DNA of 64,000 bases from an uncultured Acidobacteriota bacterium. Its GTDB lineage: Bacteria > Acidobacteriota > Vicinamibacteria > Vicinamibacterales > Fen-181. Below the pieces are notes generated by a model that did not search any database, was not told the DNA's origin, and worked only from the letters and a program-made list of their open reading frames with translations. This document shows, one piece after another, positions 4,419 through 55,620 of the stretch (the stretch's first letter is position 1; each line of letters starts with the position of its first letter). Made by a program: the position numbers and the translations under genes. The DNA is taken from assembly GCA_963717945.1 (NCBI GenBank), contig CAVQXT010000007.1, positions 1,006,808 to 1,070,807 on the forward strand, written 5' to 3'.

Positions 4419-6192
4419 ATGGAAGGCAGCGTGAGTCCCAGCCAGGGGTTCGGGACGTTCTTCAATCGGGTCCTCCTGGTTCTGATCGCCGTCGCGGCCC
4501 TGCTGAGGGGTGCGCTGGTCTTCCGCCTGAACATCGACGGGGACGAGTTCCGATTTCTGTCGCTCGTGTACCGAGTACCTGCGGGGCCAACTCGCCACCC
4601 CGCTGATGACGATCCACGTGTATCTGTTCCGGTGGCTCCCGGCGGTCTCGACCAACGAGGCGGACCAGGTTGTCGCCGCGCGGGTGGTGATGCTCGCGCT
4701 CGCGCTGGGCTCCGCGGTCCTCACGTACCTGATCGCGAGAAGCTGTCTCTCCCGCCCGGGGGCCTTGTTCGCCGCGCTCTGTTATCTCACCTTCTCGAAC
4801 GTCGTCGTCCACGGAGCCAGCTTCCGGTTCGACCCGATCTGCTCGTTCTTCTTCCTGCTCTCTCTCTGCCTGGTGCTTTCGGCGCGCACGCGCGGGGTCA
4901 CCGGGCTGATCCTGGCCGGCGCGTGCCTCTCCGTGTCGCTGCTGGTCAGCTTGAAGTCGGTCTTCTTGATTCCGACGGCGGCGATCGTGCTCGCCATCGT
5001 GGTCCGATTCGAACACGCGAAGGGCGGCTGGAGGCCCTGGGCCTGGTTCGGCGCGGGCTCGGTGCTGGTCTCGGTTCCGCTGCTCTGGCTGCACAGCGGG
5101 CGACTCCCGCGAGGCGCCGAGGGTGCGCCGGCGGCCGCCGGCCGCCTGGCCCACGCCGTGCTGGGCCAGGCCGGTTTCTTCCCCCAGTGGCGCTACCTGC
5201 TGCTCAGCGTCCTGGAGAACCCGCTCGTCTGGGTTCTGCTCGCGCTGGGACTGGCGATGACGGCCAGGCGGGTGTTCCCCGTGAGGAGCGCCGCGAAGCG
5301 GGACCTCCTGCTCCTGAGCTTCTCCCTTCCCCTGGCGTCGCTGTCCTTCTACGGCTACGCGTATCCGTACTTCATCGCGGCGGTCATCGCGCCGGCGGTG
5401 GTGTTCTGCGGGGTCGTGTTCGACAGGCTCTACTCGAGGATGGAGGAGCACCCCGGGCACGCGGTGTGGCTCCTGCTGTTCATCCAGGTGGTGTTCGGCG
5501 GTTTCCTCGTCCAGTACCTCGGCTACTCGAACGACGAGGTCTCCCCCCAGCGGCAGACGCTGCAGGTGGTCCACGAGCTGTTCCCGGAGCCCGTCCGCTA
5601 CATCGACTCGTGCTCGATGGTGTCAGCCTATCCGCAGGTCGGGCTCTTCATGACCTCGTGGGACCTGCAGAACTACTTCGACCGCGGAGAGCCGATCATG
5701 CGGGAGGTGCTGCGGCGCGAGGTGCCGGCGTTCCTCGTGGCAGACACGTATTACCTGGCTCTCGACCGGCCGTGGCGCGACACGCTGAACGGCGGCCGTC
5801 TCGGTCTGCTGCCCGGGGACTACGCGGTCTTGAGGGACAACTTCGTGCGTCACTGGGGAGCCCTCTACGTCCCCGGCAAGCGCGTGGACTTCGCCGCGGG
5901 CGAGGCGGAGAGAGACGTCGACATCCTGATTCCCGGCGTGTATACCCTGGAGGCGGAGGACGGGGTCAGGATCGGCGGGGTCCTCGTCCGACCGGGGCAG
6001 ACGGTGTGGCTGGAGAGCGCCAGGGTCACGATCTCGCCCGCGAGAGCGCCCACGACGATCGTGCTTCGCCGGGGGGACCACCTCCGGAGGCCGTCGGCCC
6101 CGCCGCCCGGCCAGCCGCTCTTCGACGGATACTACTGGCGTACGCAGCCCTTTCCCTCTCCCGAGGAGCGCCGCAGGACATGGTCGAACTGA
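4419..6192 (+). CDS. GT-C fold membrane glycosyltransferase (PMT_2/ArnT-like) with an apparent +1 frame break at ~4572
   Basis: ORF 4606..6192 is a polytopic membrane protein. The missing N-terminus (MEGSVSPSQGFGTFFNRVLLVLIAVAALLRGALVFRLNIDGDEFRFLSLVY: TM1 plus a DE loop motif) is in another frame at 4419-4571. Skipping C4572 joins ...LVY to EYLRGQLATPLMTIHVYLF. Confidence 0.7.
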
Positions 6193-7659: not shown

Positions 7660-8879
7660 GGATCGCCCTGCTCTCGTTCGAGTACCCGCCGGAGACCGGA
7701 TTCGGCGGCATCGGCACGTATACGTGGTACCACGCTCGCGCGCTGGTGAAGCTGGGCCACGAGGTGCACGTGCTGGCCGGCGCGCGCGCGCCGACCGCGC
7801 GCCGTTCCAGCGAGCACGACGGCGTCCGCGTGCACCGGTTCTGGGCGGATGGCGTGGCGATGGGCAGCTTCCACCGCCTGGGCGCCTTCAGGCTCTGGTG
7901 GACCCGGCAACGGCTGCAGAACGCGTGGAGCATGTATCGAGGCCTCTCGGCGCTGCACCGCGAGCACGGGTACGACGTGGTCGAGATGCCCGAATGCGGA
8001 GCCGAAGGCGCCCTGGTGACGCGCCTGCTGACGGTGCCCTCGGTCGTGCGGCTGCACTCGCCCGCGCGGCTCATCATGCGGTACTACGACGTGCGCCCGG
8101 CGGACATCCGGCTCTGCTCGGCGGTCGAGCGGCAGGCGGTCGCGCGCGCGACGGCGCTGACGGCGTGCTCGCGGTTCGTCGCCGGCGAGGCCAGGGCGAC
8201 GCTTGGCGTTCGGCGCGAGATCCGCTCCATCACGAACGGCCTCGATCTGGACTTCTTCGATGCGACGGCGGAGAGTTTCGACGCGTTCGACCGGTTCGAG
8301 CTGCCGCGGCGGCGCCTGTTGATCGTCTTCACCGGCCGGATGGAGCGCCGCAAGGGCGTCCACCTTCTTGCCGGCATCGCCTCGTCCATCCTCGAACGGT
8401 TCGACGTCACGTTCGCGCTCGCCGGCGACGATCTGTTCGGCTATGTGGCCGGGACGCTGCTGCCGGCGCTCGCCCCGCGGAAGCGGCAGGGGTCGGTACA
8501 CTGGCTCGGGGCGCTCGGCATGACGGAGGTGCGGCAACTGGTGCGCGCGGCGGACATCGTCCTGCTGCCGAGCCTCTGGGAGAACTGCCCGTATTCGTGT
8601 CTCGAGGCGATGGCCGCCGGCCGGGCCGTCGTCTGCGCCGATCAGGGCGGCATGCCCGAGTTGATCGAGGACGGCGTGAACGGATTGCGCGCGGCGCCGG
8701 GCGAGGTCGCGTCCTTCGTCCGGCGGGTCGAAGAGCTGATCGAAGATCCGGCACTCAGGGCGCGACTGGGACGCGCCGCGCGCGCGACGATCGAACAGCG
8801 GCACGGCGACACGCACGTCGCGCGCCAGGCGCTGGACGTCTACCACGGGCTCGTCGCGGGAAGGAGGTCGGCCGCGTGA
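7656..8879 (+). CDS. GT4-family glycosyltransferase
   Basis: In-frame GTG 7656 within ORF 7050..8879, overlapping the previous stop (GTGA). The protein reads VRIALLSFEYPPETGFGGIGTYTW ... SLWENCPYSCLEAMAAGRAVVCADQGGMPELI. Confidence 0.85.
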   Translation: MRIALLSFEYPPETGFGGIGTYTWYHARALVKLGHEVHVLAGARAPTARRSSEHDGVRVHRFWADGVAMGSFHRLGAFRLWWTRQRLQNAWSMYRGLSALHREHGYDVVEMPECGAEGALVTRLLTVPSVVRLHSPARLIMRYYDVRPADIRLCSAVERQAVARATALTACSRFVAGEARATLGVRREIRSITNGLDLDFFDATAESFDAFDRFELPRRRLLIVFTGRMERRKGVHLLAGIASSILERFDVTFALAGDDLFGYVAGTLLPALAPRKRQGSVHWLGALGMTEVRQLVRAADIVLLPSLWENCPYSCLEAMAAGRAVVCADQGGMPELIEDGVNGLRAAPGEVASFVRRVEELIEDPALRARLGRAARATIEQRHGDTHVARQALDVYHGLVAGRRSAA

Positions 8880-11533
8880 ACATTCCGGTGCTCTCGCGGG
8901 CCTGGACGGAGGTACGGACGCGACTCGCCCCTCGGGCCGGTCTGTCGCGGCCAGCCGTGCCGTTTCAGGTGATCGTGGGCGCGACGGCCTGGACGGTGAA
9001 CGGCGTGAACGTCTTCTCCGCCAATCTCGTCCGGGGCCTCGCCGCACGAGGCGTGTCGGCGCACATCTTGTTGACGGAGGACGCGACCGAGCTGGCGCAG
9101 ACGCACGAGCAGGCGATGCCCCGCCCGAACGGCGTCCGCTTCGAGTCGATCCCGGTCGGCCGCGCCGCGAACTGGGGCAGGCATTGGGGAGGCATGGTGC
9201 GGTATCTCGAGCAATCCGCCCCGTGCGTCTACGTGCCGAACAGCGACTGGCGCCATTCGCTCGTGTCGCCGCGGCTCGGCCACGACGTGGTCGTCGTGGG
9301 CATCGTCCACAGCGACGACCCGATGCACTACGATCACGTGCGCCGCGTCGGGCGCTCCTGGAATGCCGTCGTGGCGGTCAGCGACACGGTGGCGCGGAAG
9401 ACCGTTGAAACGTGCCCGGACCTCGCCGGTCGCATCACGACCATTCCGATCGGCGTCCGGATTCCGGCGTCGCGGCCGCCGCGGCCACCGGCGAGCGATC
9501 GTCTCCGGGTCATCTACCACGGCATCCTGAAGCAGCATCAGAAACGGGTGCTGGACCTACCCCGCATCGTCCGGGCGGCGCGCGATCTCGGCGTGCCGAT
9601 CGAGCTGACGATCGCCGGGGCCGGTCCGGACGAATCCACGCTCAGGCGGGCCGCCGAGCCGCTGGTCTCGGAGGGCGCCATCCGCTTCCTTGGCGTCGTG
9701 TCACACGATGACATGCCGGCCGTTCTCGAATCCCACGACGTCTACCTGCTCGCGTCGGAGTTCGAGGGCATGCCCAACGCGTTGATTGAGGCCATGGGGT
9801 GCGGGCTGGTCCCGGTCGTGTCCCGCACGACGAGCGGCATCCCCGAACTCGTTCGCGATGGCCGGAACGGCTTCGTGGTGCCGATCGGAGACGCGGGCGC
9901 GTACGCCGATCGTTTGCGTACGCTCTGGCGTCATCCCTTTCGGCGCAGGCGAATGGCCGCGCGAGCGTACCGGACGGTTTCGAAGGGCCACTTTGGCGTC
10001 GAGGACATGGTCACGTCCTATCTCGAGGTCTTCGATCGCGCGTGGGGCGACGCCAGTGCCGGGCGCTTCGTGCGACCGAGGGGTCCGCTCTCTCCGCTTC
10101 CCGCCGAGGTCGCCGGAGTGAGCGTGTTTCCGGTCGACACCCCGCACGTCGTGCCGGACCTGGGCGCGTTTCCGTCGCTCGAGGACGCGGAGGATTACGA
10201 CGACGAGATTCGGACGCTGGCGAGGAACGCCGCGCGGCGGCGTCTTGTCCCTTCCAGGCGTGCTCCGGCATCGCTCGAGGACGTTCGCGTGATCGTCGCG
10301 TCGCCGGTCTGGACGCACAACGGCGTCAACCTGTGGTCTGAGGAGCTGGTGCGGGGGCTTCGAGGCGCGCGGGTCGATGCCCGGGTCCTGCTGACGGAGG
10401 AATCGACCCGCCTGGTGACGATCGACGAGCCGAGGATGGCGAGGCCGGCGGACGTCCCGGTCGAAGAACTGCAGGTGGCCGGCGCCGACAACTGGGGCGC
10501 CCGATGGGGAGCGATGGTCCGCACCCTGGAAGCCGCCGCCCCCTGCATCTACATTCCGAATTACGACTGGCGGCACTCCTGCGTGGTGCCGGCGCTCTCG
10601 GGACGCGTCGCGGTCGTCGGTCTCCTGCACGACGACGGCCCTCTCTATGCCGAGCACGCCTCGCGGCTCGGCGATTACTGGAATGCCGTGGTCGCGACGA
10701 GCCGACAAACCGCGCGCCACCTCCGCCAGGTGTCGCCCCGGTTGAGCGATCGGATGTGCACGATTCCGCACGGCGTCCGTGTGCCGGCCGAACTCGGCGA
10801 GCGGGCATGGGGCGAGGCCGGCGGAACGCTCCTGATCCCGCCGGAGACGTGTGGCGGGAGCGTGCTGTCGTTCATCCGGGCGATCGTCGAGTCGGGCAGA
10901 GGCTGGTCGCTCGTCGCCGTCGATCCGCCCGAGGCCGATCGGGAGTGGCTGGCGGCGGCGGGCGTGCGCCTGGTGATCCGCCCGGGCCGGCTGGCATGGC
11001 TGGAGTTGTGCGCGTCGAGCCACGTTGTCGTCTCTGCGGGGGGTGACCCGGGGGCGAGGCCGCCAGTCGTCGAAGCGATGGCCCATGGATGCGTGCCCGT
11101 CACGGTTGGGTCCGCGTCGGGGGACACCACCGCGAGCAGACGCCTGCGCGACACCGGCATCACCGTTCCGGACGGCCGGTGGCACGACGCGGTTGGACGC
11201 CTGCAAGCACTGGGGCAGGATGCCGACAAGTGGAAGGAGATGGCGGCGGCCGCGCACCGCACGGCTCGCGAGATCGCGTTTGGCTCGGACCAGATGACCG
11301 CCGCGTATCTCGAGCTCTTCCGGCAGGTCATCGCGGACGCCAATTCCGGCTTCTTCGCGCGTCGCCGGGGAGCGGTGCTTCCGCCGCCGGCGGCGGTTGG
11401 CGGCACCAGCGTCTTCCCCGTTCCGTTGACGCACGCGACCGAGGGGGGCGCCTTCCCCTCGGCTGAGGACGAGGCCAGCTATCGGGCGGAGCTGGCCGGA
11501 GGCGGTGAACCTGCGGTTCTGGGACTCCCGTGA
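8876..11533 (+). CDS. Tandem-duplicated double GT4-like glycosyltransferase (~885 aa)
   Basis: GTG 8876 (GTGA overlap) within ORF 7724..11533. Two homologous ~430-aa modules. The first has SEFEGMPNALIEAMGCG (EX7E). The second has a degenerate motif (GGDPGARPPVVEAMAHG). Confidence 0.8.
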   Translation: MNIPVLSRAWTEVRTRLAPRAGLSRPAVPFQVIVGATAWTVNGVNVFSANLVRGLAARGVSAHILLTEDATELAQTHEQAMPRPNGVRFESIPVGRAANWGRHWGGMVRYLEQSAPCVYVPNSDWRHSLVSPRLGHDVVVVGIVHSDDPMHYDHVRRVGRSWNAVVAVSDTVARKTVETCPDLAGRITTIPIGVRIPASRPPRPPASDRLRVIYHGILKQHQKRVLDLPRIVRAARDLGVPIELTIAGAGPDESTLRRAAEPLVSEGAIRFLGVVSHDDMPAVLESHDVYLLASEFEGMPNALIEAMGCGLVPVVSRTTSGIPELVRDGRNGFVVPIGDAGAYADRLRTLWRHPFRRRRMAARAYRTVSKGHFGVEDMVTSYLEVFDRAWGDASAGRFVRPRGPLSPLPAEVAGVSVFPVDTPHVVPDLGAFPSLEDAEDYDDEIRTLARNAARRRLVPSRRAPASLEDVRVIVASPVWTHNGVNLWSEELVRGLRGARVDARVLLTEESTRLVTIDEPRMARPADVPVEELQVAGADNWGARWGAMVRTLEAAAPCIYIPNYDWRHSCVVPALSGRVAVVGLLHDDGPLYAEHASRLGDYWNAVVATSRQTARHLRQVSPRLSDRMCTIPHGVRVPAELGERAWGEAGGTLLIPPETCGGSVLSFIRAIVESGRGWSLVAVDPPEADREWLAAAGVRLVIRPGRLAWLELCASSHVVVSAGGDPGARPPVVEAMAHGCVPVTVGSASGDTTASRRLRDTGITVPDGRWHDAVGRLQALGQDADKWKEMAAAAHRTAREIAFGSDQMTAAYLELFRQVIADANSGFFARRRGAVLPPPAAVGGTSVFPVPLTHATEGGAFPSAEDEASYRAELAGGGEPAVLGLP

Positions 11534-12365: not shown

Positions 12366-13547
12366 ATGATCAGCATACGGGCGCAGGGACTCGGCAAGGC
12401 GTATCGCATTTACAAGCGGCCCTTCGACAGCTTGAAGGAACTGGTGCTCCGCCGCGAGTACTCCGAGACGTTCTGGGCGCTGCGCGACGTGTCGCTGGAA
12501 GTCGCCAGGGGCGGGTCGCTCGGCATCATCGGCGACAACGGCGCCGGCAAGTCCACGCTCCTCAAGCTGCTCGCCGGGGCGACGGCGCCGAGCGCGGGGC
12601 AGGCCGAGCGCAGCGGCCGGGTCTCGGCCATTCTCAGTCTCGGCGCGGGCTTCCACCCGGATCTGTCGGGCATCGAGAACATCCGGATCGGCTGCGCGAT
12701 TCTGGGGCTCTCGCCGGCAGAGACCGAGGTGCACCTGGCGGAGATCGTGGAGTTCTCCGAGCTGGGTTCGTTCGTGGAGCGCCCGGTGAGGACGTACTCC
12801 TCGGGCATGTACCTGCGGCTCGGCTTCTCGGTCGCCACCGCCGTGGCGCCACAGATTCTGATCGTTGACGAGCATCTCTCCGTCGGTGACCAGCACTTCA
12901 GACGCAAGTGCATGCGCCGCATCATGGCGTTGCGGGAGGCCGGCTGCACGCTCGTGTTCTGCTCGCACGACCTGCACGCGGTCCGGGAGGTGTGCGACCG
13001 CACGTTGTGGCTCCAGGCCGGCCGGCCGGCGATCCTGGCCGCCACGTCTTCGGCGATCGAAGCCTACCAGGATCACATCCGGGCCCGTGATGCGGAAGTC
13101 GAGGGGCCGGTCGGGAACCAGGAAGCGCCGCGCGACCACCCCGCGGACAACTACCTGACCGACGTGGCGCTTGGCGGCGACTGCCGGGACGGCCAGGTCG
13201 AGACAGGCGGAAAGCTCGAACTCCGGATTCTCGCGCGGCTGTCGCAAGCGGTATACCGCGACGGGGTCCACGTTGGATTGATCCTCGTCCGAAAGGACGC
13301 CGTCTGGTGCTATGGCGTCGCGACGAAGTGGGATGGCCTGTCTTCTGGATTGTACCCGAGGGGAGGCGATGACTATGGCGTGCGCTTCGTGGTGGATGCG
13401 CTGCCGTTACTGTCAGGTCAATACAGCTTTATCGTTGCGCTGATGGACGATCGCAGTCCGCACCTGTACGACACCTGGTCCAACGTCGCGGCCGTTCACG
13501 GTACAGCACGGCGGCAAGGAGGTCGGTGTCATGCGGATACCCCATAG
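12366..13547 (+). CDS. wzt: Polysaccharide ABC exporter ATPase (Wzt) with C-terminal glycan-binding domain; its true end is probably 13566 after a +1 frame break near 13494-13503
   Basis: ATG 12366 within ORF 12213..13547. Walker A GDNGAGKST, signature YSSGMYLRLGF, Walker B ILIVDE. The C-terminal ~150 aa are Wzt_C-like. See the finding for the frame break. Confidence 0.85.
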   Translation: MISIRAQGLGKAYRIYKRPFDSLKELVLRREYSETFWALRDVSLEVARGGSLGIIGDNGAGKSTLLKLLAGATAPSAGQAERSGRVSAILSLGAGFHPDLSGIENIRIGCAILGLSPAETEVHLAEIVEFSELGSFVERPVRTYSSGMYLRLGFSVATAVAPQILIVDEHLSVGDQHFRRKCMRRIMALREAGCTLVFCSHDLHAVREVCDRTLWLQAGRPAILAATSSAIEAYQDHIRARDAEVEGPVGNQEAPRDHPADNYLTDVALGGDCRDGQVETGGKLELRILARLSQAVYRDGVHVGLILVRKDAVWCYGVATKWDGLSSGLYPRGGDDYGVRFVVDALPLLSGQYSFIVALMDDRSPHLYDTWSNVAAVHGTARRQGGRCHADTP

Positions 13548-13562
13548 ATGGGATCGCCCGGA

Positions 13563-14738
13563 ATGACGTTCACACCTGGCGATGGAGGGTGTCGACCCTA
13601 TGACATCGTTATTGTCGGGACCGGCCCCGCCGGGTCGGCATTCGCCCGGTCAGTGAGGCGGGCAGCCCCGCACCTCCGGATCCTCGCGATTGAGGAGAAC
13701 CCCCATCCCAGAGACAAGGTCTGCGGCGGCGCGCTGACCTACCGTGCCTTGCCGCTCGTGCGGACGCTCTTTCCAGAGGTCGGCTCCATTCCCACGACGA
13801 GCTTCACCAGGGAGTATCGGCTCTGCTTCCCCAACGGTCGGAGCGTTGCTCGAGGCGACGGCGAGTTCGCCGTCGTCTGTCGGCGCGTGTTCGATGAGGC
13901 CCTGTGGAATGCGGCGCGATCGGATGGCGTGGAGACGCTCGAGGATGCTCGCGTCACCGGGCTGCTGCGGAGCGCCGGACGGGTCACCGGCGTCTGCGTG
14001 GAGCGGCGGTCGGCACGTTGGAACGTCGAGTGCAGGATGGTCGTGGGAGCGGACGGGTCGACGAGCGTCGTGCGACGGTGCACGGGGAGCGGACCATCAC
14101 GCAGCCGAGGAGCAGCCGTCCGACAGTTCATGCGTGGCGTCGAGCCGGCGGCCCGGGCACTTGTGTTCCTCGTCGATCCGGGGTGTCATGGGTATCTCTG
14201 GATCTTCCCCTTCGAGTCGGAGGGGGAGCGGTGGGCCAACGTCGGGTACTTCTGCCATACCGGGCGAGGCGTGGACCCTCGAGGGCGGTATGCGTCGATG
14301 CGGCAACATGCGGTTGCGAGACGATACTTGACTGGCGCGACCGAGGTCACGCCGCTGGAGGGCTTTCCTCTGAACCTGGCCCGAACGCACCGGGGCCGAC
14401 TTGTGCTCGATCGGCGGGTCACCGGCCCCGGGTACGTGCTCGTCGGCGACGCGGCAGGATTGGCGCATCCCGATACAGGCGAGGGAATCGCGTTTGCCTT
14501 GCACTCGGGGAGGATCGCCGGCGAGCTGGCGGCGGAGTCGCTCGACGCGGCCACGTGGGGACCGGCGTACGAACGTCTGGCTGTCCGATTCGCCCAGGAC
14601 GCAGATCCTACGGGGTTGCTGTCGTTCGTGTTCCGAGTCCCGGGCGCGTTGCCCCCCCTGGCCAGGGACTTGTATATGCGTCTGTTGCCATGGTGGCTGA
14701 ACAGGCGGCAAGGAGAGCGCGCGGCATGGCCAGCCTGA
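13563..14738 (+). CDS. FAD-dependent oxidoreductase, geranylgeranyl-reductase family
   Basis: ORF 13548..14738. YDIVIVGTGPAGSAF (dinucleotide fold) and RDKVCGGAL. Start is ATG 13548 or ATG 13563; the latter makes an ATGA overlap with the frame-corrected wzt stop. Confidence 0.75.
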   Translation: MTFTPGDGGCRPYDIVIVGTGPAGSAFARSVRRAAPHLRILAIEENPHPRDKVCGGALTYRALPLVRTLFPEVGSIPTTSFTREYRLCFPNGRSVARGDGEFAVVCRRVFDEALWNAARSDGVETLEDARVTGLLRSAGRVTGVCVERRSARWNVECRMVVGADGSTSVVRRCTGSGPSRSRGAAVRQFMRGVEPAARALVFLVDPGCHGYLWIFPFESEGERWANVGYFCHTGRGVDPRGRYASMRQHAVARRYLTGATEVTPLEGFPLNLARTHRGRLVLDRRVTGPGYVLVGDAAGLAHPDTGEGIAFALHSGRIAGELAAESLDAATWGPAYERLAVRFAQDADPTGLLSFVFRVPGALPPLARDLYMRLLPWWLNRRQGERAAWPA

Positions 14739-16340
14739 GCAAAGAGCTTATCGAAGAGTACAACCGGACCCGTGGCGAGGACGTCGATCGGAGCGTCCTC
14801 TGCCACGCGCCGTTCACGAGCATGAACTTCGAGCAGACGGGCAAGGCCAGCGCCTGCTGCTACAACAGGACCCACGTCTTCGGCGAGTATCCCAGGGACA
14901 GCGTCGAGCAGATGTGGTTCGGCGCGGCGGCGGAACAGCTCCGGAACGACATCCGCCAGGACAGTCTCGAGGGCGGCTGCAGCATGTGCAAGCGGCAGCT
15001 CGAGAGCGGCAACCTCGCCGGCTGCAAGGCCAGGATCTACGACCAGTACGCTCAGGGAACGCCGGAGCAGGGAAGCAGAGTCCTCACGTTGCCATCGCCC
15101 GCGCGGGCCGTTGCGATGCCCAGGGTGATGGAGTTCGAACTCGAGAATACCTGCAACCTCCAGTGCATCATGTGCGACGGGTTCTTTTCCTCGGCGATTC
15201 GCAGACACCGCGAGAAGCAACCGCCTCAGCACAGGCCGTACGACGCCGATTTCGTGAAGCAGCTCGCGGAGTTCATGCCGCATCTCGAGGAGATGAAGTT
15301 TCTCGGCGGCGAGCCGTTCATGATCGGGATCTACTACGACATCTGGGAGCAGGTGGCGCGCGTCAACCCCGGCGTGAAGATCCACATCACGACGAACGCG
15401 ACCACGCTCAACCCGCGCACGAAGACGCTGCTCGAGAAGATGAGGGGGGCGGGGTTGAGGTGTACCTTCTGCGTCTCGATCGACTCGGTGCGGAAGGAGA
15501 CCTACGAGGCGATCCGGGTTGGCGCCTGCTACGAACAGGTGATGGAGAACATCGCGTGGCTCTCGGACTACGCGATGAAGCGGAACGCCTCTCTCGGCTT
15601 CGCCGTCTGCCCGATGGCCATCAATCGGTTCGAGATGCCAGACCTCGTAAGGTTCGCGAGCGAGAGGGGCATCGTCGTGACCTACAACACGGTGCTGAAG
15701 CCGCCCGAGCAGGCGTTGCGCTTCCTGAACCATGAGGAACTCGATGAGCTGATCGCGAACTACGAGAGCCGCATGCCAACACACGGCTCACCGATCGGCA
15801 AGATCAACCTCGACTACTTCACGGGCTACGTGAACCAGGTGAGGGCGTGGAGGGACGAAATCGAGAAACCCAGTGATCAGATGGCCGAGCTCAGGCGCAT
15901 CGACCCGTCATCCCGCCCGCAGGCGCCGGAACTGACGCGGAAGATCCTGCTGGCCAGCATCATCGGAGCCGGCGGCCGGCGGGACCGGCTGCCGCCGGAC
16001 CCCGAACTGGACGGTGTGACGCCGGAAGACTTCCGGGGCTACCTCTGCGCGAAGCTCTCCGAGACTGCGCCGGAGCAGTTCTGGGACGCCTACCTCGCCT
16101 GCCTCGACTGGGTCGCTTCGGAATGCCTGCCGCCGGCCGAGTACCGAGGAGTTTCGGCGCAAGTGGGACGCGCTCCTGAAGATCGCGGTGGGCCTCGTCG
16201 CGAGCGCGAAACTCGCAATACTCTCAGACCTGCTCCGGGGCGATGTGGTCGCGCACCTGCGTTTCATTCTGGCCACGGACATCGCCGTCATCGTGGGGGG
16301 ACTTCATCGGTACGAGAAGTCACCCGCGTCTCACCCCTGA
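14726..16340 (+). CDS. Radical SAM enzyme with an N-terminal SPASM-like Cys cluster; apparent +1 frame break at ~16145
   Basis: ATG 14726 (RBS AGGAGAG) inside ORF 13904..16987. CNLQCIMC (CX3CX2C). The N-terminal region is LCHAPFTSMNFEQTGKASACCYN...GGCSMCKRQ. After 16145 the called frame turns R/G/P-rich, while the +1 frame gives EEFRRKWDALLKIAVGLVASAKLAILSDLL... and stops at 16338-16340. Confidence 0.75.
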
Positions 16341-16493
16341 TCAAACCCCGCACCGGCTACGGACCGCGCAGAACGCGACAGTTGCGTGCAGCCGGCCGGA
16401 CACGAGGGAGTGTAGTATCAGCAGCACGTCGAACGGGCCGGAACCGGACCACGCGTTCCGACCCGGTACCGTTCACGTCGAGGCGGCTGAGAT

Positions 16494-18665
16494 ATGAAGA
16501 CGGTCATCGTGACGCCAGAACTGGCCGGGCTTTGCCCTCAGGGGGGCATCGGGTCATTCGCCTGGCATCTGTCCCGGCTCCTGCGGTCGGTGGGGGAGGA
16601 GGTGACGGTTCTGCTCACGGGACGAGCCCGCCCCGCCCGGATGCGCTGGGCGGGTCGGTACGAAGGGGCGGGCATCGACGTGCGCACGGTCAGCCCGAGG
16701 GCCTTCCCTCCGAACACGATCGGGGCATGGGATTTCGTCGGTCGCGGACATGCCGTCGCGGATGCGATCCCGGGCGACGCCGATGTGGTCTATTTCCAGG
16801 ATTGGCTGGCAGACGGATTCGTTCCGGTTCGCATGAGGCGATTGCAGAGGAGGCGGCACCCTGTGTTCGTGAACGTCCTGCACAGTCCGACGGCCTGGAT
16901 CCGCGAGGCCATGGCCGAGTATCCGCGCCACGTGCTCCACGACATGAGCCTGGATTTCGCCGAGCGCTACGTCGCCGAGCACGTTGACTTCATTGCCTCG
17001 CCGAGTCAGTACATGCTCAGGTTCGTATCGGACCAGGGCTGGCAGTTGCCGGATTCGGATCGTACTGCGGTGCTTGGTTACCCGATTGTGCCGGACTCGA
17101 CGCCACCTGGTGCGCCCAGCTCGTCGCGACCGGGCGAGTTTCGCCGCATCGCGTTTCTCGGGAGATTCGAAGTCAGGAAGGGCACGGGGCTTTTCGTCGA
17201 TGCCCTGCGTCAGCTTCACCGCCGGCGGCCGGAGCTCCTGGACTCGATCGAGGAGATCGCCTTCGTCGGCCGGGAGGGAAACACCGGCGATCTCTCACCG
17301 CGACGCGCGGCGAACCGGCTGTCTTCGCTGCGCGCGCGGATTCGGTTCCTGAGCCGTCTGGACACAGAGGAGGTTCAGGCCCTCCTGCGATCCTGGGCAC
17401 ACGACACGCTGGTGGTGGTTCCCAGCCTCGACGACAACTACCCTTACGTCGTGATCGAAGCGTCGCTCGTTGCCGGCTTGCATGTCATCTGCTCGAACGC
17501 GGGCGGCATGCGCGAGATTCTCCTGCCCGCGGCCGGCGACCAGTTCTTCGACCCTTCCGAGCGGTCTCTCGGCGACGCTCTCGCGCGGTACCTGGCATCC
17601 GGTCCGCGTTCTCAGGCGGGACTGCATCCATATGACTGGAATCGCCACAACCGGGAGTGGCTCGATTTTCACGACCGGGTCCGGCGCGCCAGAGAGCCGC
17701 AACCGGGCGCCCTCGCCGTCTCCAGCAGGCCGACCCGGCACGTGGACGTCTGCATTCCCTTCTTCAATCACGGGGCATACCTGCCGGCGTTGCTCGAAGC
17801 GCTGGCGAACCAGACGCTGTCGGCGGGCTCGGTCACGGTGGTCGACGACGGTTCAACCGACGGTGAGTCGCAGCGCGTTCTTGCTGAGATGGGAAGCAAG
17901 TATGCCGACCGGAACTGGCGCTTCGAGGCCTCGGCGGTCAACAGGGGCGTCAGCGCCGCCAGGAACGCCGCGGCCTCGAAGGGGCATGCCGAGTACCTGC
18001 TGTTCCTCGACGCCGACAACGTGCCCGTTCCCCACATGGTCGAGCGGTTCCTGTCGGCCATCGAGGATTCCGGCGACGACTGCCTGACCTGCTACTTCCG
18101 TGCCTTCGAGGGCAGGCACGCTCCGTTCGAACGGGCCACCGAAGAGGCGGGGAAGTGCGCCATCCGCCAGGTCGTCCCCACCAGGTACGATTTCCTGCCT
18201 CTCGGACCGTGTCTCCCGCTCGGGCTCTTCGACAATTTCTTCGGAGACGCCAATTTCATCGTTCGACGATCGGTCTTCGAAGCCCTCGGAGGGTTCTCCG
18301 AGGAGCCCGAATACCGGTACGACACCCACGAGGATTACGAGTTCCTGCTGCGGCTCATCCTCGCGGGAAAGACCCTGGATGTGGTGCCGGAGGTCCTGTT
18401 CTTCTACCGAGTCACCGGGAGCGGCCTCATGGGGACGACGAGCGAGTACCGGAATCGCCTGCGCGTGCACCGGGCTTACGCCGCGCTCCTGCAGAACGCG
18501 GGCCTGCCCGGCCTCGTGCCGTACGTCTACGGCCTGTACGAGAGGGGCAAGCCGCTGGAGTTCCTGGTGGCTGAAGCGCGACGGGCGCTCCGTCATCCGC
18601 TCGCGGCCGCCGCGACGATCGGTCGGGCGGGGCTGCGGACCCTGTGGAAGCGGTTCGACGGCTGA
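16494..18665 (+). CDS. Bifunctional glycosyltransferase (N-terminal GT4/GT-B + C-terminal GT2/GT-A)
   Basis: ORF 16494..18665. The N-terminal half is GT-B-like. The C-terminal half reads VDVCIPFFNHGAYLPALLEALANQT...VVDDGSTDGES...LFLDADN (GT2 DxD). Confidence 0.8.
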   Translation: MKTVIVTPELAGLCPQGGIGSFAWHLSRLLRSVGEEVTVLLTGRARPARMRWAGRYEGAGIDVRTVSPRAFPPNTIGAWDFVGRGHAVADAIPGDADVVYFQDWLADGFVPVRMRRLQRRRHPVFVNVLHSPTAWIREAMAEYPRHVLHDMSLDFAERYVAEHVDFIASPSQYMLRFVSDQGWQLPDSDRTAVLGYPIVPDSTPPGAPSSSRPGEFRRIAFLGRFEVRKGTGLFVDALRQLHRRRPELLDSIEEIAFVGREGNTGDLSPRRAANRLSSLRARIRFLSRLDTEEVQALLRSWAHDTLVVVPSLDDNYPYVVIEASLVAGLHVICSNAGGMREILLPAAGDQFFDPSERSLGDALARYLASGPRSQAGLHPYDWNRHNREWLDFHDRVRRAREPQPGALAVSSRPTRHVDVCIPFFNHGAYLPALLEALANQTLSAGSVTVVDDGSTDGESQRVLAEMGSKYADRNWRFEASAVNRGVSAARNAAASKGHAEYLLFLDADNVPVPHMVERFLSAIEDSGDDCLTCYFRAFEGRHAPFERATEEAGKCAIRQVVPTRYDFLPLGPCLPLGLFDNFFGDANFIVRRSVFEALGGFSEEPEYRYDTHEDYEFLLRLILAGKTLDVVPEVLFFYRVTGSGLMGTTSEYRNRLRVHRAYAALLQNAGLPGLVPYVYGLYERGKPLEFLVAEARRALRHPLAAAATIGRAGLRTLWKRFDG

Positions 18666-19806: not shown

Positions 19807-20466
19807 TTATGCCGGCTGCCCGTCTTCGAGGGCTCCGCTCGACGGCGCGGCGTCGTCCGCCTCCCAGCGTTCGGGAGGCGCGGCGTCGTTCGCCGCCCAG
19901 CGTTCGGGAGGCACGGCGACGTTCCCGGTCGACAGGAGCCGGTCGTCGCTGATGCGCAACCGGTCGTGCTCGATCCGGTCCACGCCGAGCGCACTGATCG
20001 CCAGCTGGCCCGTGTCCAGGCGGAAGACCAGGCGCTTCTCGCGCAGGTACCACAGGTGGAACTCCACCATCTCGATCGGCATGCGGAGCAGGCGGGAGAT
20101 CTCGTACTCACCGAGGCCGGGCATCCGCATCTCGGTCCGGCGCTGCACGTAGAGCAGCGACAGGATCCGCTGCCTGGTGGCGGTGTCTTCGGCGAACGCG
20201 GTGCCGTGCGTCGCCTCCGATGCGAGCTTCCACTTGCGGTTCCAGTATTCCTGGTACTTCGCGTCGTAGCCGGCCCGCGTTTCGGGGTCGCCCAGGATCG
20301 CCCTGGCCCTGCTCAGCCGGCGGAACCTGGCTTCGTCGCTGGCTTCGCCGATGTCCGGGTGGCACTTCTTGGCCAGGTGGCGAAACACGCGGTCGATGGT
20401 GTCCTCGTCGGCGTTGGGGCTGAGCTGCAGAAGGTCGTAGTAGTCGACAAACGGTTCCTCGGTCAC
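19807..20466 (-). CDS. J-domain (DnaJ-like) protein with C-terminal winged-helix-like region
   Basis: ORF 19807..20466, GTG start. DYYDLLQLSPNADEDTIDRVFRHLAKKCHPDIG (HPD motif). A C-terminal 33-nt tandem duplication encodes PPERWAANDAA/PPERWEADDAA. Confidence 0.75.
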   Translation of the reverse strand: MTEEPFVDYYDLLQLSPNADEDTIDRVFRHLAKKCHPDIGEASDEARFRRLSRARAILGDPETRAGYDAKYQEYWNRKWKLASEATHGTAFAEDTATRQRILSLLYVQRRTEMRMPGLGEYEISRLLRMPIEMVEFHLWYLREKRLVFRLDTGQLAISALGVDRIEHDRLRISDDRLLSTGNVAVPPERWAANDAAPPERWEADDAAPSSGALEDGQPA

Positions 20467-20660: not shown

Positions 20661-21859
20661 ATGATCGACCCCGTCGAACGTGCCGCCCGCGAAATGCGCA
20701 ACCAGGCGAAAGTCGTGGCGGTGGTCATGTGGGCGGCGTTCGCGCTCAACTGGGCCGACCCCCACGCTTGTGGATCGCTATCTCGGGGGGCGTCAAAGGC
20801 GCTGACTTCGTTCAGTTCTACAGCCTGGCCACCGCGAGTCGGTTACATGACTTTGCCGCCCTCACATCGTCCCGTGAGCTGCACATCGTGCAGGCCAGGG
20901 CCGTCCCGCAGGCCGTCGGGGACAACTTCCCCGCAGTGTACCCACCGCAGGTCGGGCTTGCGCTCCAGCCGCTCGCGTTCTTCTCGTACCCGGTCGCCCT
21001 CGCACTGTGGACCCTGCTGACCTGGGCTCTTTACGGCACGGCTACCTGGCTTCTCTGGAGGTGCTGCCCGCGCCTGCGGCCGTACGGCCGGACAGTCGCG
21101 TGGGTGGCATGCGCATTCCCGGCGTTCTGGTGGCTCGTCACGACCGGCCATCTGTCTGCAGTGGCGTTGGGAGCGCTGGCGCTGGCCTGCCTTGCCCTGG
21201 ACCGGAAACGGTCCTGGCTGGCCGGGTGCGCCATCGGGTTGCTGGCATACAAATGGACGCTGCTGCTTCCGGCTGTCGCGGTTTGCCTCCTTGCCGGTGA
21301 ATTCACGATGCTGCTGGGCGCCGCGGCCGTCACCGCAGGCCAACTCGGCCTCGCGGTGCCGTTTGTCGGCCTGGACGGCGTCCGCCAGCACTTTGTCACG
21401 ATGTTCGACTTGAGTCGAACGCCGGATGTGCTGGCCGCCAAGCCATACATGATGTACTCGCTGCGTACCTTCTGGGCGACCCTCGTGCCTGACCGTCTCG
21501 CGGTCGTCCTGTATCTCGCCTCGGCGCTGTGCGTCTTGATCGTGGCCGCTCGCGCGTGGCGTCGAACTTCGTCAGCAACAGGCCGCGTCGGGCTCCTGGC
21601 CTGCGCGGTCGTGCTGGCGACGCCGCACTTGTTTGCGTACGACCTCGTGGTCCTCGTCCCGGCGATCCTGCTCGCGGCAGACACGGCCCTGGCGCTGCCA
21701 CGCGGAAGCGCCGCGAGGACGATGCTGACTCGAACGAACCATGCCGTGTTCTTCGTGATGTTGTTCAGCCTTGTGGCCGCGGTGGCGCGGATTCAACTCG
21801 CCACCCCGCTGCTATTCTTCTGGCTCGTTCTGCTCGCCCGTTCCGTCCGCCTCCGTTGA
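20661..21859 (+). CDS. DUF2029/GT87-like polyprenol-phosphate-dependent membrane glycosyltransferase; apparent -1 frame break at the C5 run 20759-20763
   Basis: ORF 20528..21859 carries the core (GADFVQFYSLA plus many TMs). The N-terminal TM segment MIDPVERAAREMRNQAKVVAVVMWAAFALNWADP lies in the frame of ORF 20628..21020. One extra C in the run would join ADP-PRLWIAISGGVKGADFVQFY. Confidence 0.65.
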
Positions 21860-32967: not shown

Positions 32968-34152
32968 ATGAACGAACCGAAGCGACTTCTCCTCACGGGC
33001 GGCGGCACGGCCGGTCACGTGAACCCGGCCCTCGCCATCGGCCGGGCCGTGGCGGGCGCGAGCACGCGCGTGCTGTTCGTCGGCGTGCGCGGCCGGGCCG
33101 AGGCCACCATCGTGCCGCGGGAGGGGATTCCGATCCGCTTCGTCCGGGCGTCGGGCTTTCCCGGCGGCCGCCCGTCGATGGCGCTCGCCCGGTTCTTCGC
33201 GAACCTCGCAATCGGCTTCTGCCAGGCCTGCGTGATCGTGCTGACGTTCCGGCCGACGGTCATCGTCGGCACCGGAGGGTTCGCGTCGGCGCCGGTGATG
33301 TTCGCGGCGGCGTTCCTCCGAAGGCTCGGGCTCAGCCGGGCGCGCCTCTACGTCCACGAGCAGAACGCCGAGCCCGGCAAGCTCAACCAGGTGGCGGGCC
33401 GGCTGGCCGATCGGGTCTTCGTGACCTTCCCCGAGACGCTGCGGCGCTTTCCGGGAAACGGCGTGCTCGCGGGCTATCCGCTGCGCCGGCGCATCGCGGC
33501 CGTCGATCGCGAGCAGGCGAGGGCCCGGCTCGATTTCGTGATTCCTCCGGGCCGCCAGGTCGTGTTCGCCTTCGGCGGCTCGCAGGGGGCTCGCACCATC
33601 AACCGCGCGGTCGTGGACGCGCTCGGCGACCTGATCCCCCAGAAGGACCGCCTGTTCGTCGTGCACGGCACGGGCCTTTTCAAGGGCGCGGGCTACGACG
33701 CCGGCGCGGATACGAAGGCGAGGCTCGAGTCGGTCTACACGGAGGCGGAACGGCGCGAGATCGAGTCGTTCTACGTCAGCCGCCCGTTCTTCTACCAGAT
33801 CGAAGACGTGTACGCTCTGGCCGACCTGGTCGTCACGCGGGGCGGGGCGGGCAGCCTCTACGAGATTGCCTCGCTCGGCTTGCCGGCGATCGTCATCCCG
33901 AAGGCGAACCTGCCGGGCGACCACCAGGTGATGAACGCGCGCGCCATGGCCCGATGCGGCGGCGCGGTGGTGATCTACGAGGGCGCCAGCCTGGCGGGCG
34001 GACGGATCGACGAGCGGGTGGACGGCCGGACGCTCGCCGCCGCGATCACCAGGCTGCTCTCCGACGAGCGCGCGCTCGCCGCGATGGCGCAGCGCAGCCG
34101 CGCGTTCAGCCAGGCCGACGCCGTGAGCGTGATCGAGCGGTGCATCAAAGGG
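32968..34152 (+). CDS. murG: MurG-like GT28 glycosyltransferase; there is no in-frame stop, and it appears to continue by a +1 shift into the HEAT ORF
   Basis: Part of the 2057-aa ORF 29953..36126. MNEPKRLLLTGGGTAGHVNPALAIGRAV...FGGSQGARTIN...VVTRGGAGSLYEIASLGLPAIVIP. Alternative start ATG 32929. Confidence 0.7.
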
Positions 34153-34189
34153 CGCGGATGCCGCGGGGAACGCCGCCCGGCCGGCCGTC

Positions 34190-35023
34190 GTGCAGGCGAA
34201 CGGCGAAATGCGCGGCGCGCCGGCGATCGAGGCGCTACCGTCCAACGACGTGCTGCTCGGGCGCCTGGAACGGGCGCTGGCCGCGCGCGGGGCCGCGTAC
34301 CGGCCCGACGACGTCGTCACCGCGCCCGGCGATCGCGCGTACTTCGTCAGCCGCGCCGCCCTGCTGCTGGCGAGGACCTCGTGGGAGCGCCGCAACGTCG
34401 GCGTCAAGCTGCTCGGCCTGCTCAAGGCGCGCGAGGGAGTGCCGCTGCTGCTGGCCCTGCTGGCCGACAAGCGTCCGGCGCCCCTCATCAAGCGGATGCT
34501 CGGCGGCGACTACGAGCAGGTGGGCTTCATCCGGCGCAACATCGTGACCGCGTTCGGCCGGATCGGGGACCCTTCGCCCGAGGTGGAGGCGGCGCTCGTC
34601 GCGGCGTTCGAGGATCCCTACTACGAAGTGAGAGCCGAGGCCGCGCGGGTGTCGGCCCGGCTGGCGGCCGGCTTCCGGGACCGCGACGCCCTGGTGGCCG
34701 GCCTGAAGCGCCTGCTGCCCGATCGCTGGCTCGAAGTGGCGGCCGCCGCGGCGCGGGCGCTGGGCGAGGTGGGGTCGGAGCGCGACGCGCTCCCGGCCCT
34801 GCTCGCGCTCAAGGACGCGCGGTTCTGGCACGTGCGGGCCGCCGCGCTCGAGGGGCTGCTGTCGCTCGTCGAGCGGGGGGAGGGCGGCGACCCGAACGCG
34901 CTGGTCGCCGGCCTGGGCGGCTTCGTCCTCACCTCGACCGACTTCAAGCCGGAATTCGAGATCAAGCGCCTGTACGGCCGGCTGCTGAAATCGGTGGCCG
35001 ACCGCGAAGGAGGCGAGCGGTGA
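34190..35023 (+). CDS. HEAT-repeat protein (probably the C-terminal domain of the MurG-like protein)
   Basis: ORF 34190..35023; the frame is open from 34133. It contains repeated ...VRAEAARVSARL..., WLEVAAAAARALGEVG and WHVRAAALEGL. Confidence 0.6.
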   Translation: MQANGEMRGAPAIEALPSNDVLLGRLERALAARGAAYRPDDVVTAPGDRAYFVSRAALLLARTSWERRNVGVKLLGLLKAREGVPLLLALLADKRPAPLIKRMLGGDYEQVGFIRRNIVTAFGRIGDPSPEVEAALVAAFEDPYYEVRAEAARVSARLAAGFRDRDALVAGLKRLLPDRWLEVAAAAARALGEVGSERDALPALLALKDARFWHVRAAALEGLLSLVERGEGGDPNALVAGLGGFVLTSTDFKPEFEIKRLYGRLLKSVADREGGER

Positions 35024-54483: not shown

Positions 54484-55620
54484 ATGTCCCCCGTGAAGCT
54501 CGACGATCTCCCCACGCCCGCGCTCGTCGTCGACGAAGACCGGATGGCCCGGAACATCGACCGAATGCGACGGCGCCTGTCCGACCTCGGCGTCGGCTTT
54601 CGACCTCACGTCAAGACCGCAAAGAGCATCGAGATCTCCCGCCGACTGATGCCGACGGCGCACGGCCCGATCACCGTGTCGACGCTCAAGGAGGCCGAGC
54701 AGTTCTTCGCCCATGGCGTCACCGACGTGCTGTACGCGGTGGGCATCGAACCGGGGAAACTGACCCACGTTGCTGACCTGAGGGCACGCGGTTGCGACCT
54801 GACGGTGATCCTCGACAGCGTCGAGGCGGCGGCCGACGTCTCGGCGTTCTGCGCCGCAGGGCGGTGCGAGATCCCGGCGTTGGTCGAGATCGATTCGGAC
54901 GGCCACCGTGGCGGCGTGAAGCCCGATTCGGACGGCCTGCTCGGCGTGGCCGCCGCCCTGAAGTCGGGCGCCCGCTGTCGCGGAGTGATGACACACGCCG
55001 GCGCCTCCTACGACTGTCGATCCACCGACGCCATCGCCGCCATGGCCGAGCAGGAGCGCGCCGCCGTCGTGGGCGCGGCCGCGCGGCTTCGGGCCGCGGG
55101 CCACGACGCTCGAATCGTCAGCGTCGGGTCCACGCCGACGGCCACCTTCGCGCGAAACCTCGCCGGCGTCACCGAGGTGCGCGCCGGGGTATTCGTGTTC
55201 CAGGATCTCGTCATGGCGGGCCTCGGCGTCTGCGCGATCGAGGAGATTGCGCTCTCGGTGCTCGTGAGCGTCATCGGGCACCAGCGCGAGAAGGGCTGGA
55301 TCGTCACCGACGGCGGATGGATGGCCGTGTCGCGCGACCGCGGCACGGCGGGGCAGCCGATCGACCAGGGCTACGGCCTCGTGCGCGACGCGGACGGCCG
55401 GCTGCTCGAGTCCCTCGTCATGCACGGCGCCAACCAGGAGCACGGCCTGCTGTCGCGCCGGGACGGCGGCCCGCTCGACTGGGAGGCGTTCCGCATCGGA
55501 CGGCGGCTGCGGATCGTGCCCAACCACGCCTGCGCCACGGCCGCCCAGCACGCCGAGTACTTCGTCGTCAAAGGCTCTCGCGAGGTCGTCGCCCGCTGGG
55601 AGCGGTTCGGAGGATGGTGA
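54484..55620 (+). CDS. PLP-dependent D-threonine aldolase / D-serine dehydratase-like (alanine racemase N-domain family)
   Basis: ORF 54484..55620. LPTPALVVDEDRMARNIDRM...FRPHVKTAKS (PLP Lys) ...RIVPNHACATAAQH. Confidence 0.7.
   Translation: MSPVKLDDLPTPALVVDEDRMARNIDRMRRRLSDLGVGFRPHVKTAKSIEISRRLMPTAHGPITVSTLKEAEQFFAHGVTDVLYAVGIEPGKLTHVADLRARGCDLTVILDSVEAAADVSAFCAAGRCEIPALVEIDSDGHRGGVKPDSDGLLGVAAALKSGARCRGVMTHAGASYDCRSTDAIAAMAEQERAAVVGAAARLRAAGHDARIVSVGSTPTATFARNLAGVTEVRAGVFVFQDLVMAGLGVCAIEEIALSVLVSVIGHQREKGWIVTDGGWMAVSRDRGTAGQPIDQGYGLVRDADGRLLESLVMHGANQEHGLLSRRDGGPLDWEAFRIGRRLRIVPNHACATAAQHAEYFVVKGSREVVARWERFGGW

Follow-up and report, generated by a model that had tools for sequence, protein, structure and literature searches.

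The extra C found at each of two frame breaks in a 64,000-nucleotide stretch of DNA from an uncultured Acidobacteriota bacterium (the window) is very probably a motif-specific consensus error of a long-read, most likely Nanopore-only, metagenome assembly, and the two genes concerned would then be ordinary ones. One spurious C would have been added after GTAC at 16144/16145 and another at 4571/4572. The true genes would encode an uninterrupted 537-aa radical SAM/SPASM enzyme and a 590-aa GT-C glycosyltransferase, both belonging to a polysaccharide cluster of a soil Acidobacteriota. The errors would also be non-random, with GTACGAG miscalled as GTACCGAG or as GTACAG.

An initial annotation of this DNA had offered three explanations for the breaks without choosing among them, i.e. 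+1 ribosomal frameshifting of the Ty3 type, a motif-specific sequence artefact, and coincidental pseudogenisation. The artefact is the one favoured here; Ty3-type frameshifting does not hold up against the sequences of relatives, and pseudogenisation keeps a small share of the probability.

Two genes interrupted at the same octamer

The features on which the argument rests are given below; L and P numbers denote relatives of the window and of its radical SAM product.

4419..4571, + strand: N-terminal part of a GT-C (PMT_2-like) glycosyltransferase gene, up to Tyr codon UAC (protein alignment with L003)
4568..4575, + strand: first-break copy of octamer GTACCGAG, with C4571 or C4572 as the extra base (L002 and L003 read GTGTAC-GAATACC)
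4573..6192, + strand: remainder of the GT-C gene, in the +1 frame (repaired translation and alignment with L003)
14726..16144, + strand: original-frame part of the radical SAM/SPASM gene, from ATG to Tyr codon UAC (translation, Pfam, colinearity with intact P0001)
15457..15464, + strand: compensated -1/+1 pair in the radical SAM gene, changing GLEVSF to GLRCTF (all relatives read LEVSF or LEVTF)
16141..16148, + strand: octamer GTACCGAG with one extra base (L004 reads GAGTAC-GAGGAG; the relatives except L002 are one base shorter)
16146..16340, + strand: C-terminal 64 codons of the radical SAM gene, in the +1 frame, with the stop at 16338-16340 (tail aligns with P0001-P0004)
55072..55145, - strand: tRNA-Arg(UCG), the Watson-Crick decoder of CGA, found in the window

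In the radical SAM gene the called frame reads ...LPPAEY through the TAC at 16142-16144 and is broken at GAGTAC-C-GAGGAG. Past the break it becomes R/G/P-rich and stays open until a stop at 16987 (ORF 13904..16987), with an overlap of 494 nt between the called ORF and the next gene (ATG 16494), in agreement with the roughly 490 nt first estimated. Removal of C16145 yields ...AEYEEFRRKWDALLK...SPASHP, a stop at 16338-16340 and a 153-nt spacer to the next gene. This reading, put forward in the initial annotation together with its GC-rich third positions, is borne out by translation and by codon phase: in the window, where G+C is 69%, GC at codon position 3 makes a +1 phase move at 16146, and the third-position phase of sites that vary among relatives makes a +1 move at 16146 as well, in window coordinates only. 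Which base is the additional one? It may be C16144 or C16145, and placements at G16146 or G16148/9 are equivalent; the window alone cannot tell, and C is chosen because L004 reads GAGTAC-GAGGAG.

The repaired radical SAM product has 537 aa, and a database search finds an intact 537-aa protein, P0001, with 87% identity at 100% coverage. Other intact relatives, of 536-560 aa and from JGI metagenomes, all align across the junction and the C-terminal tail, and the tail, EEFRRKWDALLK...SPASHP, can be aligned with P0001-P0004. On its 3' side, past the break, the repaired frame shares 94% identity with an intact relative, and the changes are mostly synonymous. Pfam detects Radical_SAM (PF04055, residues 141-295, E = 3.5e-16) and SPASM (PF13186, residues 26-89, E = 2.2e-6), the SPASM-like Cys-rich domain being N-terminal, and the CX3CX2C motif CNLQCIMC (C143, C147, C150) is invariant across the alignment. 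With these sequence features the product would classify as a radical SAM enzyme with a SPASM/twitch domain. Two further close matches, P0005 and P0006, represent the same gene in a frame-broken state too, at different positions.

The GT-C gene behaves in the same manner. Once C4572 is removed, its protein matches the intact L003 protein at 590/590 residues, gap-free, from Met22 of the repaired reading, and the repaired junction, DEFRFLSLVYEYLRGQL, is identical in L003. The corresponding site in L002 and L003 is GTGTACGAATAC, in frame. The skips of C16145 and C4572 originally suggested are thus the right repairs, as the matches of the repaired 537-aa and 590-aa products to intact relatives indicate.

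With both strands counted, GTACCGAG occurs twice in the window, at 4568 and 16141, consistent with the two sites previously seen by eye on one strand; both copies do lie at frame breaks and both in the phase UAC-CGA-G. The count is unremarkable (1.35 expected; at least two copies in 39 of 100 shuffles). It is the coincidence of both copies with breaks, not their number, that is unusual.

Break sites in relatives, and the case for frameshifting

The window is syntenic with relatives from about 4.3 to 23.4 kb at 86-94% nucleotide identity. L001-L006 are MAGs of soil Acidobacteriota from Microflora Danica (MFD), a catalogue for which Nanopore reads were assembled with metaFlye 2.9.2 and given one Medaka 1.8.0 round, without short-read polishing (PMC12313526). 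The contigs that hold P0001, P0005 and P0006 belong to the uncultured Acidobacteriota MAGs MFD01872.bin.1.270 and MFD01476.bin.1.216 (GTDB). The JGI and Logan contigs we take to be short-read assemblies, from the usual make-up of those collections; L010 and L011 are near-duplicates. At the radical SAM break the sequences read as follows.

Window: GAGTACCGAGGAGTTT; broken
L004 (MFD), the closest relative (93.7% nucleotide identity overall, 98.8% locally): GAGTAC-GAGGAGTTT; Y-E-E-F, equal to the window minus one C
L001 (MFD): GAGTACCAG-GAGTTT; Y-Q-E-F
L002 (MFD): GAGTACCGAGGAC; the sole relative with a +1 here
L003 (MFD): GAG TAC CGA GAC TTC; Y-R-D-F
L010 (JGI): GAG TAC CGA GAC TTC; Y-R-D-F
L011 (Logan): GAG TAC CGA GAC TTC; Y-R-D-F
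L012 (JGI): TAC CGG GAT; in frame
L013 (JGI): TAC CGG GAC; in frame

Seven of the eight relatives are therefore one base shorter than the window at this site and are in frame there, L004 having GAGTACGAGGAG, L001 GAGTACCAGGAG, and L003 and L010-L013 the pattern GAGTACCGR-GAY. Local identity to the window is 98-99% for L001 and L004, which are without the extra base, and 88% for L002, which has the +1. Because the haplotype backgrounds differ in this way, the break common to the window and L002 points to recurrence and not to descent.

Could the extra base have come from a merging of strains? Haplotypes that differ after TAC, with C in L001 and G in L004, might have been co-assembled and their consensus written as TAC-CG-AGGAG. 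L001 (TACCAGGAG) and L004 (TACGAGGAG) were binned together in a single MAG of a single sample, and TACCGAGGAG, the sequence of the window, represents their union. This origin is nevertheless improbable, as a C/G difference is normally aligned as a mismatch and not as an insertion. Strain merging also leaves unexplained the insertion at 4572, where relatives read GTACGAA and have no C/G polymorphism, as well as the events in L003 and the overall enrichment of indels at GTAC described below.

Programmed +1 ribosomal frameshifting at UAC-C-GAG, with a pause at CGA and out-of-frame binding of Glu-tRNA as in Ty3, would provide full-length proteins from both genes. The identical octamer in identical phase at the two window breaks suggests such a mechanism, as do the +1 at the same codon in L002 and a GTAC[C]GAG elsewhere in the same gene of L003, all of which are repaired by a +1 shift. 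The sequences of the relatives, however, appear largely to refute it, and we regard it as extremely unlikely. The two-frame architecture is not conserved: it is absent from seven of eight relatives, the closest ones (L004 and L001) among them, and the 4572 site is in frame in L002 and L003. Moreover, L003, L010 and L011 have GTACCGAG at the orthologous codon, phased as UAC-CGA-G, and decode it in frame 0 (consensus YRDF) within intact genes; in L010 (JGI) and L011 (Logan), both presumed short-read, the octamer-bearing gene is intact at 536 aa. The octamer is therefore not a shift signal.

Nor is CGA the hungry codon that had been invoked, since among 3152 codons from genes with a verified frame it accounts for 15% of the Arg codons (58 of 384) and its cognate tRNA-Arg(UCG) gene is present. 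The tRNA-Tyr on UAC is unable to re-pair on ACC. A direct reading of the sequence upstream of either octamer gave no SD-like or GGAGG-like element, and the RNA folds flanking both octamers are no better than those of shuffles (z from -0.49 to +0.29). The same contigs also have deletions, T insertions, a substitution with insertion, indels outside the motif and the compensated 15457/15464 pair, none of which is explained by a ribosomal shift signal. In addition, the L003 instance is located eight codons before the natural stop, where a shift would lack function.

Known +1 systems provide a further comparison. The prfB (RF2) frameshift at CUU-UGA-C is similarly needed for a full-length product, but there the P-site codon is slippery, the A site is occupied by a stop codon, an SD-like stimulator lies upstream and the arrangement is conserved across bacteria, none of which is true of the window site. 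In Ty3 (GCG-AGU-U) the aminoacyl-tRNA binds out of frame and the P-site tRNA does not re-pair; as the P-site tRNA is unable to re-pair at the window site, only a Ty3-like mechanism would be applicable there. Ty3, however, needs a rare A-site codon and a downstream stimulator, whereas at the window site CGA is common, has its cognate tRNA gene, and the site is unconserved. We know of no description of a Ty3-type mechanism in bacteria. That the extra C is real, is decoded at UAC-C-GAG by a Ty3-like +1 shift and has arisen repeatedly at GTAC^GAG in polysaccharide-cluster genes of this lineage has next to no probability; if true, it would be the first +1 frameshift in a bacterium to occur without slippage in the P site, and it would be switchable.

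Frame-breaking indels and assembly type

How frequent are breaks of this kind in the assemblies concerned? The window was compared with L001-L004 in multiple alignments that cover 16.2 kb; indels with lengths not divisible by three (non-3n) were assigned to the odd-one-out sequence, and the broken sequence was identified for each indel from the variable-site phase in that sequence's own coordinates. Private frame-breaking indels number 5 in the window, 5 in L001, 8 in L003, 8 in L004 and 31 in L002; 3 more are common to subsets of the sequences. By variable-site analysis the phase of the window changes at 13494, 16146 and 20755-20778. Of the additional breaks listed in the initial annotation, those at 13494 and 20755/20778 are found to be window-private insertions; the one at 34.15 kb has a GC3 phase change as its only sign.

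The GT4-GT2 gene (16468-18562) is broken in L001, L002 and L003. In the window its codon phase is constant throughout, so that the related sequence CTACCGAG at 18404-18411 is read in frame 0, as had been stated. A hidden -1 at 18188 in the window copy was considered and rejected, as third-position phase is constant in both the window and L004.

A comparison by type of assembly is possible over 7.5 kb of common coding DNA. Here 18 non-3n indels are found in 35 kb of long-read-type sequence vs 0 in 22 kb of JGI/Logan sequence, presumed short-read (P = 1.6e-4, or 2e-3 when L010 and L011 are treated as a single sequence). Over this stretch private non-3n indels number 1-5 per long-read contig; the window has 1 together with 1 shared, and L010, L011, L012 and L013 have zero. 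In this respect the window resembles the Nanopore contigs, and its similar indel pattern suggests that it was itself taken from such a long-read assembly. JGI metagenome contigs, scanned for the junction in its frameshifted form, gave 0 matches, a weak negative because the in-frame control pattern matched only 2 contigs.

Might the insertions instead be real mutations, with both genes as recent pseudogenes and GTAC^G possibly as a mutational hotspot? The base is present in the sequence, a 1-nt insertion and a consensus error look alike without reads, and a copy of the window from another technology was not found. Five or more breaks also fall within about 19 kb of a single polysaccharide cluster in the window, and polysaccharide clusters are prone to decay or strain-to-strain variation. 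Pseudogenisation is still an improbable explanation. Every long-read relative is broken in these genes at positions of its own, and none of the JGI/Logan contigs (presumed short-read) is broken; the same insertion is seen on unrelated haplotypes and at non-homologous GTACGAG sites. The repaired radical SAM frame past the break has kept its close, mostly synonymous relation to an intact relative. The -1/+1 pair at 15457/15464, with changes 7 nt apart of which the second generates a GTAC, is typical of miscalling rather than of mutation. Real mutation would also leave unexplained the recurrence of indels at one motif in independent assemblies.

Association of the indels with GTAC

Of the alignment columns, 3.7% are within 2 nt of a GTAC, and 11 of 60 events fall in them (P = 1.2e-5). 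If L002, which is noisy at random, is dropped, the proportion becomes 10 of 29 (P = 5.5e-8); dropping the tested site too leaves 9 of 28 (P = 5e-7). The GTAC events are listed here by sequence, with inserted bases in brackets and deletions as [-].

Window: GTGTAC[C]GAG at 4572; GAGTAC[C]GAG at 16145
L002: the same site as 16145; AAGTAC[C]GG
L003: GGTAC[C]GAGAAG, by which its own stop codon is destroyed, the window being intact there
L003: AGTAC[C]GATTT
L001: GAGTAC[C]CTG; GG[T]TACGAC; GAGTAC[-]CGG
L001, further: GTACG read as GTGCAG; C[G]GGTAC
L001 and L002: CTGTAC[-]AGAGG

The insertion GTAC[C]GAG arises independently in the window (twice), L002 and L003. Between 4.3 and 18.6 kb the true sequence is GTACGAG at four sites, each of which is damaged in one contig or more; none of the three CTCGTAC sites in the same stretch is damaged. 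The alignment shows no indel event where the base after GTAC is A or T, or where the base before it is C. Events linked to GTAC favour one strand over the other by 9 to 1 (P ~0.02). The context that matters is GTAC followed by G or C, GTACGAG above all, and GTACCGAG is what the error produces and not what it acts on.

The association is partial in two ways. Copies of GTACGAG at 16310, 18536, 40532 and 45387 in the window are unbroken, and the error process therefore strikes just a fraction of sites; partial damage of this kind would be expected where a small, strand-mixed read pile-up decides the consensus. The motif also accounts for part of the error load only, because the window breaks at 13494, 20755, 20778 and 34.15 kb are away from GTAC, as are all eight private indels of L004.

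What might make a sequence such as GTACGAG error-prone? Modified bases leave persistent R10.4.1 consensus errors (PMC11610573; PMC11610603), and the motif dependence seen here may come about because a modification of the DNA alters the signal in the pore. Given the strand asymmetry, the motif may be non-palindromic and hemi-modified, and the error pattern may mark an undescribed non-palindromic modification motif that contains GTACGAG. Simple palindromic GTAC methylation is disfavoured because of this asymmetry. It was set aside as too simple a cause, given the 9-to-1 ratio, the absence of events at CGTAC or GTAC[A/T], and 0 of 8 in L004. Methyltransferase motifs ([DNS]PP[YFW], PCQ/ENV) did not turn up in a crude search of those window ORFs that are high in GC3. 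The number of GTAC copies in the window, 139 vs 85-182 expected by model, is uninformative. GTAC is a known methylated motif in Helicobacter pylori (PMC10689673), which has no bearing on this Acidobacteriota lineage, and the text of the Nanomotif preprint mentions neither GTAC nor Acidobacteriota.

The published Nanopore modification errors (Lohde et al. 2024, PMC11610573; Liu et al. 2024, PMC11610603) resemble the window case in several respects: they are tied to motifs, resist polishing, are private to an assembly, are absent from orthologous sequence in assemblies presumed to be short-read, and affect some motif instances only. They differ in that they are mainly purine/pyrimidine substitutions, whereas those of the window are 1-nt indels at GTAC[G/C] that are strand-asymmetric and for which the modification is putative. 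A likeness to long-read homopolymer-length errors can also be seen, as these are one-base and frame-breaking and a change of C to CC is the minimal homopolymer change; homopolymer errors, however, depend on run length, whereas the window runs have 1-2 bases and the dependence is on the flanking GTAC.

The breaks appear biologically unimportant, as both genes are ordinary and are intact in relatives, and their value is in quality control, with motif dependence and strand asymmetry as a hint of DNA modification. Nanopore-only MAGs of this lineage have about 0.1-0.9 frame-breaking indels per kb over the common 7.5 kb, with more in L002 over the wider alignment, and a sizeable share of these falls at a single recognisable context in which GTAC precedes G or C. 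Such errors split or lengthen gene calls, as with the 753-aa chimeric ORF that here runs into the next gene, and because the same octamer recurs, consensus errors can mimic recoding signals.

Strand asymmetry of the GTAC-linked indels

Single-nucleotide indels linked to GTAC are unevenly distributed between strands. Over 4.3 to 18.6 kb of the window and the stretches of L001-L003 aligned to it (syntenic contigs of close relatives, from Microflora Danica Nanopore MAGs), nine have the coding-strand context NGTAC[G/C] vs one with the mirrored context, and none is found in these same sequences at CGTAC or GTAC[A/T]. Because of this asymmetry and the lack of indels in the latter contexts, a non-palindromic sequence context or modification motif is hinted at.

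Other frame disturbances in the window

Three further insertions are private to the window and shift coding phase; they are listed here with the sole tRNA gene of the window.

13494, +G, in a Wzt-like ABC ATPase gene
20755, +C, in the gene with start 20528
20778, +C, in the same gene
55072-55145, minus strand, tRNA-Arg(UCG) gene

None of the three insertions is at GTAC, the GTAC closest to 13494 being 7 nt downstream. The radical SAM gene also carries a compensated pair at 15457-15464, -C then +A 7 nt apart, which changes the conserved GLEVSF to GLRCTF. The window stands alone here in the alignment, as all relatives agree on the other reading, and the inserted base creates a new GTAC.

Is there also a break near 34150? 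GC3 changes phase there, with 0.96/0.72/0.54 upstream vs 0.59/0.94/0.80 downstream (34100-34200), in a stretch covered by the window alone. Either a gene junction or a break in the frame could give this change; the closest GTAC is at 34297.

Assemblies of the relatives and variation in the cluster

MAG MFD01872.bin.1.270 carries the same gene cluster on two contig ends, L004 (contig_31940) and L001/L005 (contig_53951), with roughly 94-98% nucleotide identity between copies. It seems that two haplotypes or strains of the region are present in this bin. Over the whole locus, ~31 single-base insertions in 16 kb are private to L002, far more than in its neighbours and in no particular context, and the gene calls of L002 are fragmented, in keeping with these insertions; it is probably a low-coverage contig.

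Gene content of the cluster differs among relatives (window 13548-14738; L002 11593-17281; L010, a presumed short-read JGI contig, 7720-9974). The window, L001 and L004 have a gene for an FAD-dependent oxidoreductase that is absent from L002 and L003 (in both a 1126-nt gap) and also from L010, and carbamoyltransferase genes are situated 3' of the radical SAM gene in L002 and L010. At 19847-19890 the window has 30-31 nt more than L002 and L003, with a repeated GCGCGGCGTCGT on the flanks, which looks like a length difference by tandem duplication.
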